DNA of 64,000 nt from NCBI GenBank assembly GCA_964016885.1, contig OZ024745.1, forward strand, positions 61,814,001 through 61,878,000. The letters run 5' to 3'. A program made the translations under genes and the position numbers. Below, piece after piece: positions 2,593-50,354 of this stretch (position 1 is the stretch's first letter; the number at the start of each line of letters is the position of its first letter). Below the pieces are notes generated by a model that worked only from the letters and a program-made list of their open reading frames with translations, searched no databases and was not told the DNA's origin. Source of the stretch: Eledone cirrhosa (lineage: Eukaryota).

Positions 2593-3369
2593 AAATTGGA
2601 TTAAATGCTCTGAAATAGCGATATATATGTGAAGATAGACATAGAATATTCGAAAATATTCTGTATGTTTAAATAAACATTTTGAAGACCTAATCGCTAT
2701 AGAATAGAATACGTCACGTATTACAATTAGATTCTCGATAAAAGCAAGGGAAGTAACCTACGCGTTTCATTCTCATTAGAAATCTTCAGGATTACATATC
2801 CAGTGCTTTTATCGAGAATGACACAGCTAGAGACTTATAGAATACTTAGCTGTGTACAGGAACTGGTTTGAAAGAGCGGTTGCCGGTCCGGCAGAAATTA
2901 GAAATTGGATTAAATGCTCTGAAATAGCGATATATATGTGAAGATAGACATAGAATATTCGAAAATATTCTGTATGTTTAAATAAACATTTTGAAGACCT
3001 AATCGCTATAGAATAGAATACGTCACGTATTACAATTAGATTCTCGATAAAAGCAAGGGAAGTAACCTACGCGTTTCATTCTCATTAGAAATCTTCAGGA
3101 TTACATATCCAGTGCTTTTATCGAGAATGACACAGCTAGAGACTTATAGAATACTTAGCTGTGTACAGGAACTGGTTTGAAAGAGCGTAAAAGCACTGGA
3201 TATGTAATCCTGAAGATTTCTAATGAGAATGAAACGCGTAGGTTACTTCCCTTGCTTTTATCGAGAATCTAATTGTAATACGTGACGTATTCTATTCTAT
3301 AGCGATTAGGTCTTCAAAATGTTTATTTAAACATACAGAATATTTTCGAATATTCTATGTCTATCTTCA
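2593..3369. mobile_element. retrozyme-like/PLE-derived element: about 1.9 tandem copies of a 309-bp unit (HHR on minus) followed by an inverted partial copy, flanked by (TA)n
   Basis: 2593-2901 is repeated at 2902-3187; 3188-3369 is the reverse complement of part of the unit. HHR motifs at 2753-2795(-), 3062-3104(-) and 3204-3246(+). Confidence 0.85.
3204..3246 (+). ncRNA. minimal type I hammerhead ribozyme
   Basis: GTAATC-CTGAAGA-tTTCT aatg AGAAt-GAAACGCGT-A-GGTTAC: helix I 6 bp, canonical core, palindromic helix III ACGCGT, GUA triplet. Confidence 0.85.
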
Positions 3370-3990
3370 TATATATATATATATATATATATACAATGTA
3401 CAAAGGCAAAATTTCGGCTTTTGAAGCGCTGAGAATATGTGTATATATATATAAGTATAAACAAAGGATCTTCATCCTACTTTATAAACTATGAGATACT
3501 TCTGGTTTCCTTGACCGTAGGACTACCTCCCTACTCACAACGATCGGCACGGAGCTGGCTACCAGCAGGTGTGAGCCTCTCGAGCTGGAATGGCTCTTCT
3601 AATGCGTCTTCCTCGCCATCCTCCGGAGAAACGCCTTTTCAATTCTTTGCGTCGGGGCCAAGGAGCGGCCGGTGCGTGGGATACCATTTGCTCATAATAG
3701 TGAGAGACGAGGAGAGCGGGAGAGACAGAGGCATCAATGCACACACACACTTGATAAGACAATGATTGATGTCGTTTCTTTGAACGAAAGTTATGAGATT
3801 GAGAATCCTAATGTATAAGAATTTTTTTTATTGAAAACCCTCTCATATGTATAAGTTCAAACATAACATATCGACATTCTTTATTGATTATCATTTATAT
3901 GACACGTATGCATATATTTTTTATTTATCATTTATATGACACGTATGCATATATTTTTCAAATCCACTGTCAATAAAGACACCAGGATTT

Positions 3991-5046: not shown

Positions 5047-6615
<1,569 letters not shown>

Positions 6616-6618
<3 letters not shown>

Positions 6619-7073
6619 CTTATCAAGATTCTTTATCTGAAAACATGTGTTGAAACCGATATTGTTATACTTTGGGAGGGTCATGTTGCCAATAAGAAAC
6701 ACACACACCAGTTGCTTTCACTTCAATTTATTATAATAAATTTATAAATTTAGGAATTTATAAATTTCCGGTTGGTTGGTTGGTTCCACAACCAGATGGT
6801 TGTTTATATATTGTCAAAGTTCTTTCGTCACATATTCTGTGACCTCTTCAGTGACTGGGGAAACAAAGAAAAGAATCCCCAGTCACTGAAGAGGTCACAG
6901 AATGTGTGACGAAAGAACTTTGACAATTTATAAACAACCATCTGGCTGAGGTAACCAACCAACCAACCGGACATTTATAAATTCCTAAATTTATAAATTT
7001 AATTTATAATAAATTGAAGTGAAATCAGCTGGTGCGTGTGTTTCTTATTGGCAACATGACCCTCCCAAAGCAT

Positions 7074-7080
<7 letters not shown>
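6616..7080. mobile_element. HHR fold-back element (arms about 6659-6862 and 6876-7080; left extension about 45 nt)
   Basis: Inverted repeat between (TA)n tracts. HHR at 6882-6924(+): GTCA-CTGAAGA-gGTCACA gaatg TGTGAC-GAAAG aa CT-T-TGAC. Confidence 0.85.
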
Positions 7081-7126
<46 letters not shown>

Positions 7127-8753: not shown

Positions 8754-8811
8754 CATATATATATATATATATATAGTAAGGAGGTCAAGTATGTTATAGA
8801 TCAGTAAATAG

Positions 8812-8860
8812 TTGCTCCGAAGAATCCAAACCTCGGTTTGGAGGAAACAATTGTAAGCAA
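8812..8860 (+). ncRNA. hammerhead motif with CCGAAGA (U4C) core
   Basis: TTGCT-CCGAAGA-aTCCAAACC tc GGTTTGGAg-GAAACAATTGT-A-AGCAA. Related copies near 38330-38378(-), 43530-43577(-) and 44538-44586(+) keep the CC. Confidence 0.7.
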
Positions 8861-8891
8861 ATAAATGACTTAAACTGAACTTTGATTATTG

Positions 8892-9015
<124 letters not shown>

Positions 9016-9081: not shown

Positions 9082-9825
<744 letters not shown>

Positions 9826-29040: not shown

Positions 29041-29305
29041 AGAAAATTTTCGAAACAGCGAGCGATTTTGAAATTATAAATGTAAGCTATCGCCGTATTT
29101 TGACTAAAGAAATTAAAGAAAATTATTTAGCCTGATAGTGGGGTTAAGAACCCTCAGAGAAATGGAAAAAGATGAGTAATGACGTACATGTACGTCAATA
29201 CTCATATTTTTCCATTTCTCCGAGGGCTCTTAACCCCACTATCAGGCTAAATAATTTTCTTTAATTTTTTTAGTCAAAATACGGCGATAACTTACATTAT
29301 AATTT
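29041..29305. mobile_element. fold-back element, 5'-truncated relative of the tRNA-headed element at 32597-32967
   Basis: Palindrome centred on GACGTACATGTACGTC; arms match 32644-32745. Confidence 0.8.
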
Positions 29306-32566: not shown

Positions 32567-33626
<1,060 letters not shown>

Positions 33627-38219: not shown

Positions 38220-38293
38220 TAATTGCCTTATGTTGTTTATTACATAACTATATATATATACATATATACATATACATATATATATAGAGAGAG

Positions 38294-38791
38294 ATTACAA
38301 TAATCAAAGTTCAGTTTAAATCATTTATTTGTTTACAATTGTTTCCTCCAAACCGAGGTTTGGATTCTTCGGAGCAACTATTTAGTGATCTATAACATAC
38401 TTCACCTGCTTTTCAACACAAGAGACATATAAAAACATATGCACATATTGACCCACAGTGGGATGACATCCATCAAAATGATATAGCATGGCAATTTACA
38501 TATAAAGGTTAAAGGATAAAAATAAAAATAAAAATAAAAATAAAAATAAAAATAAAAATAAAAATAAAAATAAAAATAAAAATAAAAATAAAAATAAAAA
38601 TAAAAATAAAAATAAAAATAAAAATAAAAATAAAAATAAAAATAAAAATAAAAATAAAAATAAAAATAAAAATAAAAATAAAAATAAAAATAAAAATAAA
38701 AATAAAAATAAAAATAAAAATAAAAATAAAAATAAAAATAAAAATAAAAATAAAAATAAAAATAAAAATGAAGCATTGGCAGTTTATGAAG

Positions 38792-38865: not shown

Positions 38866-39065
38866 AACGAAGGAAATATGTTAAGGAACCAGGTGGACCA
38901 TAACGCACCAAGGTACTCAATACTTAGGGTAGTAGAGTGGGTAATAGGAACGAGTAGGACCCCGGCGGCTGAGCTCAAGCCGTATCTACAGCTAATTCTG
39001 GATTTAGTCCAGAATTAGCCGTCGAAACGGCTTGAGCTCAGCCGTCGGGGTCCTACTCGTTCCTA

Positions 39066-39067
<2 letters not shown>
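38866..39067. mobile_element. GC-rich fold-back element with about 80-nt extension
   Basis: Arms about 38945-39002 and 39008-39066; same family as 26639-26760. Confidence 0.75.
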
Positions 39068-43325: not shown

Positions 43326-44620
43326 GTATTAAGGATACTATTTATGGTTATGTATATACTAAAACCTTTTATAGTTATATATATTTTAAACCCTAAACAG
43401 TGAAAGACAGTAATTTATTACTACCTTATTACCAGTAAGATAAATAGCTCAATGTAATAACATCAGTTGTTCTACAGAGCAGTTATATAGAAATCACATG
43501 AATCAAAGTTCTGTTCAAACTATTTATTAGCTTACAATTGTTTCGTCCAAACCGAGATTTGAAGTCTTCGGACCAATTTTTCAATGATTGTTTACATACA
43601 TGACCTCCTTTCCAACACAAGAGACATCCAGAAACATATGTATATATCGATGCACAGTGGGGTGACATCCATTATAATATTTTAGCATGGCAATTTACAT
43701 TCAAAAATTAAAATCATATTAAAAGAAAATTAAAAGAAAGTTAAAGTTAAAATACAACATCGGCAGTTTACGAAGATAATGCAAGAGGATAGTTTGAAGT
43801 AGTTAGTGTATGCAATAGTTACACGTGGGGCATGCACGTGTGTCTTATTTATATAAGATTAATGTGCGGCAAGGTGTTATATGCAATACAAGCACTTTAA
43901 GCGGGTAAACAAGAGTATTATGGGGGTTGTACTGGTAAAGTATTTTTTATGCATAATAAAGAAGCTTGTGTGCAGAGAGATATTAAAAATAAGAAGCAAA
44001 ATAATGTTATGGTTTTCGTATACACCACCATTTTCACAATCCAGGAAACGTAATAGGAAACGTAATATTACGTTTCCTGGATTGTGAAAATGGTGCTGTA
44101 TACGAAAACCATAACATTATTTTTATTCTCATTTTTAATATTTCTCTGCACACAAGCTTCTTTATCATACATAAAAAATACTTTACCAGTACAACCCCCA
44201 TAATATTCTTGTTTACCCGCTTAAAGTGCTTGTATTGCATATAACACCTTGCCGCACATTAATCTTATATAAATAAGACACACGTGCATGCCCCACGTGT
44301 AACTATTGCATACACTAACTACTTCAAACTATCCTCTTGCATTATCTTCGTAAACTGCCGATGTTGTATTTTAACTTTGTTTTAATTTTCTTTTAATATG
44401 ATTTTAATTTTGAATGTAAATTGCCATGCTAAAATATTATAATGGATGTCACCCCACTGTGCATCGATATATACATATGTTTCTGGATGTCTCTTGTGTT
44501 GGCAAGGAGGTCATGTATGTAAACAATCATTGAAAAATTGGTCCGAAGACTCCAAATCTCGGTTTGGACGAAACAATTGTAAGCTAATAAATGGTTTGAA
44601 CAGAACTTTGATTCATGTGA

Positions 44621-44628
<8 letters not shown>
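43326..44628. mobile_element. large near-perfect fold-back element (arms about 570 bp, left extension about 160 nt) with CCGAAGA HHR motifs
   Basis: 43485-44053 is the reverse complement of 44067-44628; mirrored ORF pairs in the track confirm the symmetry. Confidence 0.9.
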
Positions 44629-44652
<24 letters not shown>

Positions 44653-45055: not shown

Positions 45056-45104
<49 letters not shown>

Positions 45105-45141
45105 GAAAGATTTGAATGGATACAGTTTAGTTGAAAGGAAT

Positions 45142-45258
45142 TTATTGACACGTGTTTCTATAACAGTTACATAACCTAAAACAGCTATCTACAAACTTTT
45201 AGTTATGCAGACATTCAATATTTCAATGTTATTATTTACTGTCATTTCATCAGAATAA
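45142..45258 (-). ncRNA. hammerhead ribozyme in the downstream pLTR (88-nt branched helix II)
   Basis: Minus strand: TTATT-CTGATGA-aATGACAGT..ACTGTTATa-GAAACACGTGT-C-AATAA; GUC triplet. Confidence 0.8.
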
Positions 45259-45822
45259 TATTACTGAGGACCTATTTAGTTTTTATAGAGAATATTAGGA
45301 GGGAGGGGTGAAGTTGTTAGAAGAATAGTTGAAGGAGTGGTTTTTCGATAGCAGTGAGAATTCTTGGTGGCAGTGAGTAATTAGATTCCCATCTGTTGTT
45401 TTGACATTTTTTATAGAATATATTATTGGTTATTTTTCTAAATCTATAGAAGGATTAGAGATAGTAAAGATATGCGTGGTTGGTTTTGTGTTTGCACTTA
45501 ATTAACATTCAGACTTAAATTTTTCTTTCAAGTGTACGTATCCTTTCACCCACGCATTCACACACAAATATATTTGCACACCTCTACAAAATACATATAC
45601 TCACAATTCATATATTCATACTTACATATATATACACATGCATACACATATATATACACACATGTATTCATGTACATACATACGCGCTCATGTGTATACA
45701 TTTTCATACTCAACTTATCTTTATATACACACGTATAGACACACTCATATATACATACATACTCTAGTCCATGTGTACACACAAACACATACTTACACAT
45801 CCATATACACATATATACATAC

Positions 45823-45887
<65 letters not shown>

Positions 45888-46208
45888 CATATATACATAC
45901 ACATACATATACACACACATACATACACATATATATATAAGCACTTTAATACATGAATACACTTACATCTAACTATACACATCAAACATATATATATATT
46001 TACTTATTTATATACATTTTCATATATATATACATACTTATGGACGTTTTTAGACACATTCATTATCGCATATTTGTACCTATTCTCATCAGCATATCTT
46101 TTCATTATTAGTATGGTAATTTAAGGTTATTAATATATGTTGAGAAGAGATTGTTTTTATATTTTTCTAACTAGATTAAGGTTTATATAGTTGGGGGATG
46201 TCCCTCTT

Positions 46209-48530
46209 TTATGTAATATTCGGCTTGTAGTGGGAAAAAAGGGTTTTAGTTCTGTGACGGCAGAATAATGTTCGTTCAATTCTGTTATTCAGCAGTTTCT
46301 TCTTGTGTGTGATTATGTAATAAATCTCAAGATTACATAATTTGCAGAAATTTTGGCTCCTGGAAAAGCTTTGGGTTTTAGCTAATTTTTCCCATTTTAG
46401 GGTAAACTTTTGGTCGCTATCCCTGAGCGTCCAAGCTTTTTCTGCTAAAGTTGTTACATTTCTTTGGCTCTGGTGTTTTATTGAGTAAGAATGCCTATAC
46501 AATCGAGATTTAAACGATGTTGCCGTTGATCCCACGTAATACCACTCGTTGCCTCCGGATTTAATGGTACACTTATAAATAATATTTTTTTCCAGGCAGT
46601 TATTGCCGAGGGGGCAGTTGTCAGGATAGGTGCAGTTACAGTTGTGTACGTTGGGTTTTCTCTGGAGTAGTATTGCGGACGAACTTAGGTGTGGTTTATT
46701 TATGTTCTGTAGTGTATTGTCTACTGTTTTTTTTGTGTTCTTTGTACTTAAGTTCTTAGTGTTTTCGTTTAACCTTCTAGTATTGATCTTTTTTATGTGT
46801 TGTTCAAGGTTTAACGCTGTAGAGTATGACAGTCTTATAGTGGTAGGGTTTAGGATTTTGTGGTATTTGTGTGATGTGGGAAAATGTCTTTTAATTATTT
46901 TAAAGAAGAGTACTGGTAAATTTGTACTAATGGAGCTATTGTATTCGGGGTTATACCATAAGTACTCTTTGCATCGCTTTCTATTAGTTTTGTTTGTTGG
47001 TTTACTGGTGTGCATACTATGGTAGTAAGTGTGGTTTGGTGTTGTGTTATTATATCTACCTATGTGGGATTTATTTTGGGTGTTTTGATTGTTCCCATCT
47101 ATGTACTCTATTTTGTTGAGGTAGCCTGCTTTACTAAGGGCGTTATCGTAGTACTCGGCGTGTTCCTTAAATACTTGTATGTTAGAATATAGACTCGAGA
47201 TTCTAAGGGAAATATTTTTAGGGATAGATTTAATTATAGAGATGGGGTGGTTAGACCCAACATTTACGTATTTGAGATTTTCATTCAATTTATGAAACGG
47301 TTTAATCAAACCAGAGTTTAAATTGAGTGTGACATCCAGGAAGTTAACTACTTTAAGGTTGTATTCATATGTTATAGTTAGTCCTATTTCGAGTAGTAGT
47401 TTTCTTATATCTTTGCGTAGTTTTTCTAGTTTTTGGTTATTAAGGTTTTTAGCTAGGAGGAGAACATCGTCGCGGTATATTCCGCCGTGGAGATTGCTGA
47501 ATTTTTCCTGGAGTCTAAAGGCGATAAATAACCCCACAATATCAGTTATTTCCGCCGAATCGTTAGAGCCCATTGTTATGTCAAAGTTAGAGGGTCTATC
47601 TTTACGTACCCAATAACTGTTCTCAAATTTGACTATAGTTTTCCTAGCTTCTAATATAATCTTAATTTCATCGTTTGTAAGGTCAGAGTTATCCTTAGCA
47701 AACTTAATGGCTCTATTCAAAGTTTCAGGTGATATCGATGAGTAATATTCATCGATATCAAACTGGATAAACTTAGATTTATTCTTATTGCTAATGCTAT
47801 TAAACCATCTTATTGCTTCTTGGGTCTTCCCCCAGAGTTTAATGTTAACCTTAGCCTTAATTTGGGGGATGATTCTATCTAAGATATATTTGCTTATTTT
47901 ACCTATATCTGATTTAGAGGGGCAGATTAATCTAATTTTAGGGTCATTATCAAAGTTTACCTTGTGGTCCTTAAGATTGAAGGTGGGTACCGCCGGTAAG
48001 AGTGGTCCTGTCCTATCTTCGATTCCGAGATTTTTCACTATTTCGCATGCCTCATCATTGATGTGCTTAAGGGTTACTTCACTCGTTTTTCTATATTTTT
48101 TATGTAATTCTTTTCGAATGAAGTTGTTGTATGTAGTGCAATCCATAGTGTACAGGTTTGATGTTTTGTCCGCTTTTACTACAATTCCTTTGGTGTTTTT
48201 AAGGTCGTCCAGTAGTTTTTTTATATCTTTCTGTAATTTGCTGTTGGTGTTGCGTCCTTTGAATTTAATTTTAAGGATTAAGTTCATAAGGTCCTGCTCA
48301 AATGCATCTAATAGTGGGTTGGTGGGTGGGTTTTTACAAGTCCTAAAACCGAATTTGTTGTTTACACCACTTTCTAATGTTGAGTTCATACGGCTTCTAT
48401 CATAGTGGAGCGTTTTCCACCTGACACGTCGAATGAATTCATTAGTTTTTTGAATCATGCTCAATAAATATTCCTTTCTACCTTGGGTTGGTATGTTTTT
48501 GAGTGACATATCCAGGTAGTGTTTTTCCAT
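46209..48530 (-). CDS. PLE reverse transcriptase plus C-terminal GIY-YIG endonuclease, 773 aa (motifs suggest the Hydra clade)
   Basis: RT motifs KADKT, KIRLI, QFDIDEYYSSI, TMGS, YRDD, NFLDVTL, SNHP; linker CNC..CPL..CL; endonuclease IIYKC..YYVGST..FKSRLYRH..CKLCNLE..LLNNR..CRH; no stops. Confidence 0.95.
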   Translation of the reverse strand: MEKHYLDMSLKNIPTQGRKEYLLSMIQKTNEFIRRVRWKTLHYDRSRMNSTLESGVNNKFGFRTCKNPPTNPLLDAFEQDLMNLILKIKFKGRNTNSKLQKDIKKLLDDLKNTKGIVVKADKTSNLYTMDCTTYNNFIRKELHKKYRKTSEVTLKHINDEACEIVKNLGIEDRTGPLLPAVPTFNLKDHKVNFDNDPKIRLICPSKSDIGKISKYILDRIIPQIKAKVNIKLWGKTQEAIRWFNSISNKNKSKFIQFDIDEYYSSISPETLNRAIKFAKDNSDLTNDEIKIILEARKTIVKFENSYWVRKDRPSNFDITMGSNDSAEITDIVGLFIAFRLQEKFSNLHGGIYRDDVLLLAKNLNNQKLEKLRKDIRKLLLEIGLTITYEYNLKVVNFLDVTLNLNSGLIKPFHKLNENLKYVNVGSNHPISIIKSIPKNISLRISSLYSNIQVFKEHAEYYDNALSKAGYLNKIEYIDGNNQNTQNKSHIGRYNNTTPNHTYYHSMHTSKPTNKTNRKRCKEYLWYNPEYNSSISTNLPVLFFKIIKRHFPTSHKYHKILNPTTIRLSYSTALNLEQHIKKINTRRLNENTKNLSTKNTKKTVDNTLQNINKPHLSSSAILLQRKPNVHNCNCTYPDNCPLGNNCLEKNIIYKCTIKSGGNEWYYVGSTATSFKSRLYRHSYSIKHQSQRNVTTLAEKAWTLRDSDQKFTLKWEKLAKTQSFSRSQNFCKLCNLEIYYIITHKKKLLNNRIERTLFCRHRTKTLFSHYKPNIT

Positions 48531-48734
48531 TGTTGTGGTTGCGTTTGCTGTGTGGGTTGCTCGACTTTACAGGAGGTAAATATACAGTATTTTCCGTTGT
48601 GTTGTAATATAAATATTACACACAGTAGATTATCAGCTCACGTAGAGTTTGCTCGACGGTTCCAGTTGTAGTTCCAAAAGTAATCCGGAGAAAAATAGAA
48701 AGATTTGAATGGATACAGTTTAGTTGAAAGGAAT

Positions 48735-48851
48735 TTATTGACACGTGTTTCTATAACAGTTACATAACCTAAAACAGCTATCTACAAACTTTTAGTTATG
48801 CAGACATTCAATATTTCAATGTTATTATTTACTGTCATTTCATCAGAATAA
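48735..48851 (-). ncRNA. hammerhead ribozyme in the upstream pLTR (identical copy)
   Basis: Same sequence as 45142-45258 at an offset of 3593 nt. Confidence 0.8.
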
Positions 48852-49415
48852 TATTACTGAGGACCTATTTAGTTTTTATAGAGAATATTAGGAGGGAGGG
48901 GTGAAGTTGTTAGAAGAATAGTTGAAGGAGTGGTTTTTCGATAGCAGTGAGAATTCTTGGTGGCAGTGAGTAATTAGATTCCCATCTGTTGTTTTGACAT
49001 TTTTTATAGAATATATTATTGGTTATTTTTCTAAATCTATAGAAGGATTAGAGATAGTAAAGATATGCGTGGTTGGTTTTGTGTTTGCACTTAATTAACA
49101 TTCAGACTTAAATTTTTCTTTCAAGTGTACGTATCCTTTCACCCACGCATTCACACACAAATATATTTGCACACCTCTACAAAATACATATACTCACAAT
49201 TCATATATTCATACTTACATATATATACACATGCATACACATATATATACACACATGTATTCATGTACATACATACGCGCTCATGTGTATACATTTTCAT
49301 ACTCAACTTATCTTTATATACACACGTATAGACACACTCATATATACATACATACTCTAGTCCATGTGTACACACATACACATACTTACACATCCATATA
49401 CACATATATACATAC

Positions 49416-49486
<71 letters not shown>

Positions 49487-50293
49487 CATATATACATACA
49501 CATACATATACACACACATACATACACATATATATATAAGCACTTTAATACATGAATACACTTACATCTAACTATACACATCAAACATATATATATATTT
49601 ACTTATTTATATACATTTTCACATATATATACATACTTATGGACGTTTTTAGACACATTCATTATCGCATATTTGTACCTATTCTCATCAGCATATCTTT
49701 TCATTATTAGTATGGTAATTTAAGGTTATTAATATATGTTGAGAAGAGATTGTTTTTATATTTTTCTAACTAGATTAAGGTTTATATAGTTGGGGGATGT
49801 CCCTCTTTTATGTAATATTCGGCTTGTAGTGGGAAAAAAGGGTTTTAGTTCTGTGACGGCAGAATAATGTTCGTTCAATTCTGTTATTCAGCAGTTTCTT
49901 CTTGTGTGTGATTATGTAATAAATCTCAAGATTACATAATTTGCAGAAATTTTGGCTCCTGGAAAAGCTTTGGGTTTTAGCTAATTTTTCCCATTTTAGG
50001 GTAAACTTTTGGTCGCTATCCCTGAGCGTCCAAGCTTTTTCTGCTAAAGTTGTTACATTTCTTTGGCTCTGGTGTTTTATTGAGTAAGAATGCCTATACA
50101 ATCGAGATTTAAACGATGTTGCCGTTGATCCCACGTAATACCACTCGTTGCCTCCGGATTTAATGGTACACTTATAAATAATATTTTTTTCCAGGCAGTT
50201 ATTGCCGAGGGGGCAGTTGTCAGGATAGGTGCAGTTACAGTTGTGTACGTTGGGTTTTCTCTGGAGTAGTATTGCGGACGAACTTAGGTGTGG

Positions 50294-50354
<61 letters not shown>

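Follow-up and report, generated by a model that had tools for sequence, protein, structure and literature searches.

A young Hydra-clade PLE of Eledone cirrhosa that is likely reverse-transcribed around a ribozyme-cut, re-ligated RNA circle

The 64,000-nt stretch of Eledone cirrhosa DNA analysed here (the window) contains, on its minus strand at 45102..50302, an insertion that runs past its own unit length, a 3,593-nt unit being joined to a 1,608-nt, 5'-truncated second round of the same sequence. Which RNA could have templated such a copy, and what part the two hammerhead motifs within it play, are the questions that this locus raises. The insertion is a single arm of 1.45 rounds that ends at a fixed 3' site, termed A. 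The near-identical 1.6-kb repeats recognised in an earlier sequence-only reading correspond to the 3' part of the unit (downstream pseudo-LTR, 45102..46703) and to the second round, truncated at unit position 1992 (upstream pseudo-LTR, 48695..50302), and they differ over 1,602 aligned nt by 2 substitutions and one 6-nt indel that sits in a TA run. The pseudo-LTR, whose length differs in every copy, is no more than the unit's second round, cut short at its 5' end. The (TA)n target that had been noticed at both ends was borne out by the left (45089..45101) and right (50303..50352) flanks. Inside the 1.1-kb 3' UTR, a TA/CA microsatellite tract (45570..46045, minus strand) varies in length among copies. 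Site A (unit 3593, 45102..45104, minus strand) has UAU at its end, the complement of a TA primer, and a 115-nt tail (unit 1-115, 48580..48694, minus strand) separates it from a second site, B, at 48580; in the window copy this tail is found solely at the internal junction.

Because the repeats are near-identical and the region is rich in microsatellites, an assembly artefact could be suspected, and it had been named beforehand as what would undo the tandem. However, the seamless junction recurs at 34 of 35 full-length loci, where the upstream length differs from locus to locus, the window's two repeats differ at 2 sites, and the junction is spanned by contigs from other runs, X1 and X7, that were compared over the ORF and the junction. 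An artefact is vanishingly improbable for this locus and is largely dismissed for the family.

The open frame at 46209-48566 on the minus strand, with its Met at 48530, is intact as first described and encodes 773 amino acids (46209..48530), comprising a telomerase-like RT together with a C-terminal GIY-YIG endonuclease. Along this minus-strand frame lie the Hydra-diagnostic RWK motif (aa 37-39, 48414..48422), DKT, the Hydra form of DKG (aa 121-123, 48162..48170), the RT catalytic YRDD (47466..47477), a CxCX5C linker (aa 631-639, 46614..46640), the GIY-YIG core (IIY..YVG, 46530..46583) and the endonuclease CxxC, E735, N748 and CxH (46254..46346). The linker that had drawn attention ahead of the endonuclease reads CNCTYPDNCP at aa 631-640 and precedes IIY..YVG. 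The endonuclease residues are CKLC-NLE at aa 729-735 and CRH at aa 757-759, flanking the conserved E and N, and CCHH is absent because just one Cys lies between IIY and YVG. In an alignment of 121 proteins, RWK was present in 106, ADK[TS] in 114 (ADKG in none) and the strict CxCX5C in 103; overall, the Hydra motifs were found in the query and in 103-120 of these proteins. A Pfam profile search gave no match for the query protein and, among 8 relatives, a weak RVT_1 match in one, the rest going unrecognised, and the call of an RT with a C-terminal endonuclease therefore rests on motifs, on the alignment and on the closest structural match of the predicted protein, which is TERT (E 1.1e-8, with an alignment-based structure model).

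These results support the assignment of the element to the Hydra clade of PLEs, in agreement with the sequence-only reading, as every protein motif listed by Craig et al. 2021 (PMC8557442) is present in the query. With that clade, which includes Hydra-1_Obim, the element has in common RWK, DKT, CxCX5C, the lack of CCHH, CxxC and CxH around E and N, a single ORF and a (TA)n target, together with a canonical sense hammerhead motif near the 3' end whose layout, including a palindromic stem III and a stem II that is mismatched at its base, matches the published Hydra table (PMC8557442). Insertion into (TA)n is general, four AT repeats opening 69/81 A-end and 52/61 B-end flanks and the remaining flanks being mostly TA-tract variants. 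Naiad and Chlamys elements were ruled out by their N-terminal endonuclease, which is C-terminal here, and Penelope/Poseidon, Neptune and Nematis by their endonuclease CCHH and DKG motif, both of which are missing here. The trait that did not hold is a length generally under 3 kb, which is descriptive and not diagnostic: the unit has 3,593 nt, whereas published Hydra families are mostly below 3 kb (PMC8557442). The element is further set apart from the published families by its long, microsatellite-bearing 3' UTR, and its 115-nt tail differs from the 30-40 bp described for PLEs. Compared by eye, the family is distinct from Hydra-1_Obim.

The family is young, high-copy and recently multiplied. 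The genome holds 2,766 exact matches to the 3' end and over a thousand near-identical insertions whose tandems are fully resolved, and extrapolation puts the total at about 1,850 insertions; an ORF of at least 770 aa is retained at 21 of 34 other full-length loci, and the ORF is under purifying selection (p=2.6e-6). The view that the element is very recent and autonomous was thus upheld, and it may still be active.

The two type I hammerhead motifs, at 45139..45262 (downstream copy) and 48732..48855 (upstream copy) on the minus strand, are identical and 3,593 nt apart, exactly as had been noted for 45142-45258 and 48735-48851. Read by motif, they contain CUGAUGA, GAAA and GUC and can form helices I-III, with a palindromic helix III; the predicted cut falls after GUC, between 45147 and 45146 and between 48740 and 48739. 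Helix II is a predicted hairpin of 88 nt (45159..45246, minus strand; -24.1 kcal/mol, z -4.35), an unusual length for a hammerhead that differs from the stems of 3-7 bp tabulated in PMC8557442, and our search of the open-access literature found no paper on a long stem II. Rfam missed the hammerhead at all thresholds tried. In a constrained fold, the predicted active monomer reached -20.4 kcal/mol, against -24.2 kcal/mol for the MFE structure, a shortfall in stability of 3.8 kcal/mol, and conservation of the ribozyme core was non-significant (shared alleles at 0 in 36 sites vs 23 in 292, p=0.09). Selection on the long helix II gained no support, 7 of 10 recurrent variants falling on predicted pairs, mostly breaking them, with no compensatory change. 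The extension of helix II is a stable predicted fold without demonstrated importance.

Copies of the family terminate at the two fixed sites A and B, which are 115 nt apart in the 5' UTR, lie 45 and 160 nt downstream (3') of the predicted cut, and both end in a UAU-type match to a TA primer. A predicted hairpin (-4.9 kcal/mol) starts 5-6 nt past A; the one past B is weak and bulged (-0.4 kcal/mol). In 82 of 83 informative inverted insertions (18/18, 34/34 and 30/31 by sample), one arm ends at A and its partner at B. The arms of one insertion were concordant in their subfamily alleles at 159/159 sites, with 20.9 discordant sites expected, and at 266/267 sites in a second sample, with 27.7 expected. 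Concordant arm haplotypes are also compatible with two RNAs from a single source locus. The arms meet head-to-head, mostly via 1-6 nt of microhomology, and in one-arm insertions the visible arm ends in or beside the target.

In L1 twin priming, both nicked target strands prime cDNA and the products are joined head-to-head by microhomology, the arms being adjacent, non-overlapping parts that start at variable internal sites. The insertions described here resemble it in dual-strand priming and in their joins, and differ in that the start sites are fixed and the stretches copied by the two arms, each as long as a whole unit at most, overlap. No paper on Penelope twin priming was found in the open-access literature. 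The Poseidon element PAc of Anolis (Frangieh et al. 2024, PMC11167929) likewise has two internal RT start sites that bound a tail, a hammerhead upstream of them, an AT-rich target and cutting and extension of both target strands. However, PAc belongs to the Penelope/Poseidon clade, and its sites lie inside the ORF and are reportedly non-homologous to the cut DNA (PMC11167929), whereas the sites here are in the 5' UTR with a UAU that matches the TA primer; in bulk, PAc shows no strand difference in start site, whereas A and B are used one per arm.

Copies also pass the predicted cut. None of 269 crossing segments (samples of 89, 86 and 94) has an indel at this position, and arm 5' ends within 5 nt of it number 2/89 (1.1 expected) and 0/31. 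Of 35 near-full-length loci, 34 continue into a second round. The lengths of second rounds (median 838, n=39) agree with those of first rounds (median 1,098, n=89; KS p=0.31), in a comparison of modest power in which the second-round median is the shorter, and second-round ends show no fixed 5' end and neither a cap nor a pile-up. Tandem repeats inside one insertion have 185 subfamily alleles and 29 locus-private alleles in common. Copies that are longer than a unit, scarless and end-less, as would be taken to mark a circle-templated element, are present in the family. In one sample, 7/89 arms ended at unit 3395-3402, a possible RNA 5' end; this pile-up was rejected as a transcription start, being seen at 1/39 second-round ends and in 0/31 arms of a new sample (P=0.08 under the first-sample rate), and so not replicated.

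From these copy statistics, we consider that the likely template of reverse transcription is a 3,593-nt RNA circle produced by ribozyme cleavage and re-ligation. The upstream repeat would provide the transcription start region, and the two hammerheads, probably as a dimer or assisted by protein, would excise one unit, which a host ligase would circularise. The RT-endonuclease, possibly dimeric, would nick both strands of a (TA)n tract. At the DNA level, one new end begins at A and the other at B, 115 nt downstream, via the UAU-type match. Both cDNAs would be extended on the end-less template with a roughly constant drop-off rate (mean about 1.1-1.2 kb), those beyond 3.6 kb would recreate the pseudo-LTR, and the two cDNA ends are fused head-to-head by the microhomologies described above. 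Transposition through a self-cleaved 3.6-kb RNA had been suggested from the sequence: of its two forms, the linear cleaved monomer is disfavoured because its 5' end would be 45 and 160 nt away from the two starts, so that the ORF could not be templated, and because copies do not halt at the cut, while the circle is the best, though provisional, reading. More tentatively, and with somewhat less than even confidence, a dimer may grip one circle at A and B, each fixed site priming one nicked (TA)n strand, and roll along it with strand displacement, renewing the pseudo-LTR in each cycle and carrying small non-coding circles too, such as that of a 260-nt tRNA-bearing family.

Cervera and de la Pena (PMC4209133) had put forward a circular template for PLEs in 2014, as an explanation of their tandem repeats, likewise with a hammerhead-bounded unit and its ligation into a circle. 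Animal non-LTR retrozymes (PMC7229834; bioRxiv 10.64898/2026.07.22.740005) are alike in their hammerhead-bounded unit and their head-to-tail, more-than-unit insertions, and small animal retrozymes form circles that RtcB ligates (PMC7229834). The retrozyme circles demonstrated are non-coding and of 170-400 nt, whereas the circle proposed here is coding, of 3.6 kb and supported by genomic copy statistics alone; our literature search found no demonstration of an RNA circle for an autonomous PLE. We count against the circle that in the sole in vitro PLE system ribozyme mutations left insertion unaffected and the substrate was mainly unprocessed RNA (PMC11167929), that Naiad and Chlamys form tandems without canonical hammerheads (PMC8557442), and also the Rfam miss, the weaker active fold, the p=0.09 for the core and the unreplicated cluster of 7/89 arm ends.

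Both the model of Frangieh et al. 2024 (PMC11167929) and their in vitro results speak for a different template, an uncleaved linear read-through RNA from rare loci with at least two units, in which multi-unit masters would be renewed by unequal crossover between repeats and the ribozyme would be dispensable or act later. Such an RNA accounts equally well for the scarless crossing of the cut, and multi-unit loci exist (L021 and L049). A dimeric circle was considered for the triple tandem L049 and rejected, as its derived alleles (4) are common to units 2 and 3 and not to units 1 and 3. The pattern points to duplication after insertion and is a sign that multi-unit arrays can arise, and be homogenised, by unequal crossover at the DNA level, which keeps the read-through template alive. 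We nevertheless regard it as unlikely: two direct full units occur at only 2 of 35 full-length loci, each of six subfamilies (grouped by eye) includes copies whose second round reaches 1.6-3.2 kb or more, and second-round ends lack a cap or pile-up. By eye, no identical discordance was inherited by two sister loci, and no inversion junction was noticed to be common to independent loci in the subset inspected, apart from one segmental duplicate. R2 and group II intron RTs are known to jump end to end, and if the RT here passed precisely from the 5' end of a ribozyme-cut linear monomer to the 3' end of that monomer or of a different one, this virtual circle would give the same unit-length bottleneck and endless template. 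However, such jumps usually add or lose bases, and the absence of indels from all 269 crossings, with no accumulation of run-off ends at the cut, makes this version very improbable.

As a trans-acting driver of the (TA)n fold-backs in the window, the element is a doubtful candidate. It shares with them the (TA)n target and a one-sided tail, but the unit has no significant DNA similarity to any fold-back. The adjacent fold-back (43326..44630) is a separate element that belongs to a second coding Hydra family, of which it is a truncated, two-armed copy, with a 158-nt tail and a hammerhead-like motif with a CCGAAGA core. In L118 and L122 it continues into its own Hydra RT-EN coding sequence, and the suggestion that our element drives it is not supported; it is also older, because its arms are only 93-97% alike. 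Given a further Hydra fragment at 5332-6352, several enzymes are candidate drivers. The non-coding 260-nt tRNA-bearing family, found in the window at 32597-32968, has the same two-end geometry and copies that are 98-100% identical, and some PLE enzyme must therefore carry it; by eye, it has a weak look-alike of site A. Our element may drive this fold-back; no paper on tRNA-bearing PLE passengers in octopus was found in the open-access literature.

How PLEs regenerate the partial tandem that their transcription needs is an acknowledged open question (PMC8557442; PMC2377424), and what their hammerheads do is a matter of dispute, with a circle proposed in 2014 and cleavage found dispensable in vitro in 2024. 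In this young, intact and numerous family, copy statistics tell against a cleaved linear template of the simple kind and in favour of one without an end, and copy analysis fixes the exact coordinates of the predicted cut, A and B. The element would be a candidate for the first studied Hydra-clade enzyme, one that is closely related to telomerase and has (TA)n as its target.

On the minus strand of the window, the Penelope-like retrotransposon (PLE) at 45102-50302 carries an uninterrupted 773-aa ORF, mapped here in a unit coordinate (u = 48694 - window position + 1; sense unit u1-u3593) in which the ATG lies at u165, the stop codon at u2486, the hammerhead core (sense) at u3442 and the predicted hammerhead cut (sense) after u3548. 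The repeats 45102-46703 and 48695-50302 are two substitutions and a 6-nt TA indel apart, the two hammerhead stretches show no sequence difference at a spacing of 3,593 nt, and (TA)n adjoins the element at both ends, in line with the sequence-only reading. In sequencing runs X1 and X7, contigs cross the junction between units and have end B, one of two fixed 3' ends, next to TA; the X7 pieces show scattered differences from the window copy. Near-identical sequence occurs under four organism labels in runs X1, X2, X3-X6 and X7 (shares 0.68-0.90), a spread for which related species or the mislabelling of samples are possible reasons.

A Pfam search of the protein yielded zero matches. The protein has 292 relatives, the best 120 of which share 31-43% identity, and an alignment-based model (pLDDT 90.1) has TERT as its best predicted structural match (E 1.1e-8). 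Craig et al. (2021, PMC8557442) define the Hydra clade by RWK, DKT, CxCX5C, CCHH loss, CxxC and CxH, hammerheads and (TA)n targets. Every one of these features was found in the window element, with the protein motifs present in 103-120 of 121 aligned proteins, in agreement with the Hydra placement proposed earlier, an assignment made by motifs. The 3,593-nt unit is longer than published Hydra families, and its 88-nt helix II far exceeds those tabulated by Craig et al. The element is a new family within an already described clade.

In the 3.0-Gb genome, all 40 scored matches to the ORF core were near-identical, and a 30-nt 3'-end pattern had 2,766 exact matches, the first 100 listed of which were grouped by reading into 67 insertions, which extrapolates to some 1,850 in all. 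From the family majority the window copy diverges by 0.15% (median 0.47% in a length-unselected sample), which, with the exact end matches, supports the earlier reading of the element as very recent. An ORF of at least 770 aa is kept in 21 of 34 other full-length loci (L033 and L032 being one locus). ORF alleles found in at least two loci are 36 synonymous and 16 non-synonymous, against 67 and 138 for single-locus alleles (p=2.6e-6).

Copy ends were studied in three samples, comprising 35 near-full-length loci, 59 insertions taken regardless of length from the 67 listed for one contig, and 60 stretches drawn from 150 endonuclease matches. Nearly all 3' ends occupy one of two sites, A at u3593 and B at u115, the latter following a 115-nt tail; exceptions include L173 (u29), L180 (about u3580) and L036 (neither). 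Inverted insertions, in which two cDNA-derived arms are joined head-to-head, follow one pattern in 18/18, 34/34 and 30/31 informative cases: one arm ends at A, its partner at B. These counts omit 2, 3 and 5 cases that were gapped, disrupted or had an end beyond the stretch, and take the segmental duplicate L193/L194 once. Single-arm copies have the A end in 17 of 22. The last three bases of both A and B are UAU, the complement of a TA primer; TA tracts form the flanks, and 28 of 38 inversion junctions show microhomology of 1-6 nt. Paired arms agree in subfamily alleles at 159/159 sites (20.9 discordant expected at random) and, in a second set, at 266/267 (27.7 expected). Frangieh et al. (2024, PMC11167929) showed in vitro that a PLE cuts both strands, extends them and initiates at two sites flanking the tail, and Craig et al. 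(PMC8557442) note that often one end alone has the tail. What our data add is a strict rule, one start site per arm, of which we found no earlier report in the open-access literature searched. It follows from this rule that the two primings are coupled, a single RNA being the simplest basis and two RNAs from one locus the alternative.

The B arms of L071 and L205 halt at u3, right at site A (two of ten B arms ending within the tail), as if they had run into the partner's primed end on one shared RNA. In L062, L100, L103 and L104 the arms end within about 11 nt of each other in unit position, forming perfect palindromes, which may reflect arms that occasionally halt together or one arm that snaps back.

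Several fold-backs in the window have a microsatellite at one end and a tail at the other, as do, by eye, most of those at 33209-33533, 6659-7081, 2930-3378, 38944-39066 and 9181-9428; in 33209-33533 a minimal core that resembles a hammerhead but lacks stem II was seen by eye. The adjacent fold-back (43326-44630; also 38290-38513 and 8778-8894) represents a second Hydra family. Its tail is 158 nt long, and its inverted arms begin at query 153-161 in 7/8 second-arm matches. Some 46 nt ahead of its A end lies a hammerhead-like motif with the core CCGAAGA in 12/12 copies; its A end, too, reads TTTCTAT. In L118 and L122 it leads into a Hydra RT-EN coding sequence of its own, and it has no significant DNA similarity to the 3,593-nt unit, which speaks against the proposal that the element drives this fold-back; judged from its sequence, it would need no driver in trans. 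A decayed third Hydra-type fragment (5266-6430) retains thumb, linker and endonuclease between inverted repeats. PLE geometry also characterizes a 260-nt non-coding tRNA-bearing repeat (32597-32968; loci L129-L148): it forms partial tandems with seamless joints and has inverted arms, its two fixed 3' ends are some 50 nt from each other, it targets (TA)n or (TC)n, and its copies are 98-100% identical; an Rfam search of it found no ribozyme. Being non-coding, this family would require a driver in trans. A diverged relative lies at 29048-29305.

Read by motif, the element's hammerhead has the order CUGAUGA, 88-nt helix II, GAAA, palindromic helix III and GUC. Isolated helix II folds at -24.1 kcal/mol (z -4.35), the whole 171-nt region is unremarkable in fold stability (z -1.1), and the active monomer fold is predicted 3.8 kcal/mol above the MFE. 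An Rfam search of the region did not detect the motif. When X1, X2 and X7 were compared with the element, small insertions in helix II were seen in X7.

From the predicted cut it is 45 nt downstream to A and 160 nt to B, which places both sites near the 5' end of a monomer running from one cut to the next; on such a linear RNA, reverse transcription begun at either site could not copy the ORF. Arm ends show no excess at the cut (2/89, 1.1 expected; 0/31), and segments crossing it have zero indels there in 89, 86 and 94, with 2, 1 and 3 substitutions nearby. Run-on into a second round is seamless in 34/35 near-full-length loci, and the lengths of second rounds (n=39; median 838, mean 1,066) and first rounds (n=89; median 1,098, mean 1,244) were not distinguishable in distribution (KS p=0.31), in hand-entered tables that omit the duplicated unit of L049, disrupted L091 and five arms halting inside the tail and treat L098 as censored. 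Repeats of one insertion have 185 subfamily and 29 locus-private alleles in common. They disagree at 103 of 49,777 positions, many of these due to three deletions and none, by eye, recurring in sister loci. Scarless crossing of the cut, absence of end pile-up, matching round lengths and shared repeat alleles together indicate a template that behaves as end-less and unit-periodic.

We consider it rather probable that this template is a ribozyme-derived RNA circle. The mechanism itself is not new, an end-less circular template for PLEs having been proposed in 2014 by Cervera and de la Pena (PMC4209133); in the open-access literature searched we found no genomic or biochemical circle test for an autonomous PLE. 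Of the self-cleaved 3.6-kb RNA suggested earlier, the circular form accords with the copies, and the linear form conflicts with the position of A and B and the lack of pile-up. An uncleaved multi-unit RNA is an unlikely template, for which speak ribozyme mutants that leave insertion in vitro unimpaired (PMC11167929) and L049, which indicates that unequal crossover is able to build and homogenise multi-unit arrays, making linear multi-unit masters possible. Precise jumping between template ends appears still more improbable. Weighing against the circle are the non-significant conservation of the ribozyme core across copies (p=0.09), the tandems that Naiads form without canonical hammerheads (PMC8557442) and a cluster of seven A-type arms, among 89 arms, ending at u3395-3402 (window 45293-45300 and 48886-48893), which did not replicate in a further sample and is possibly a pause site or RNA start. 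L049 and L116 (G000 C2, ~283.73-283.75 Mb) form a ~14-kb insertion with an extra unit, likely gained by unequal crossover after insertion. The family is ordinary and well classified, yet it lends itself unusually well to testing how pseudo-LTRs are regenerated.
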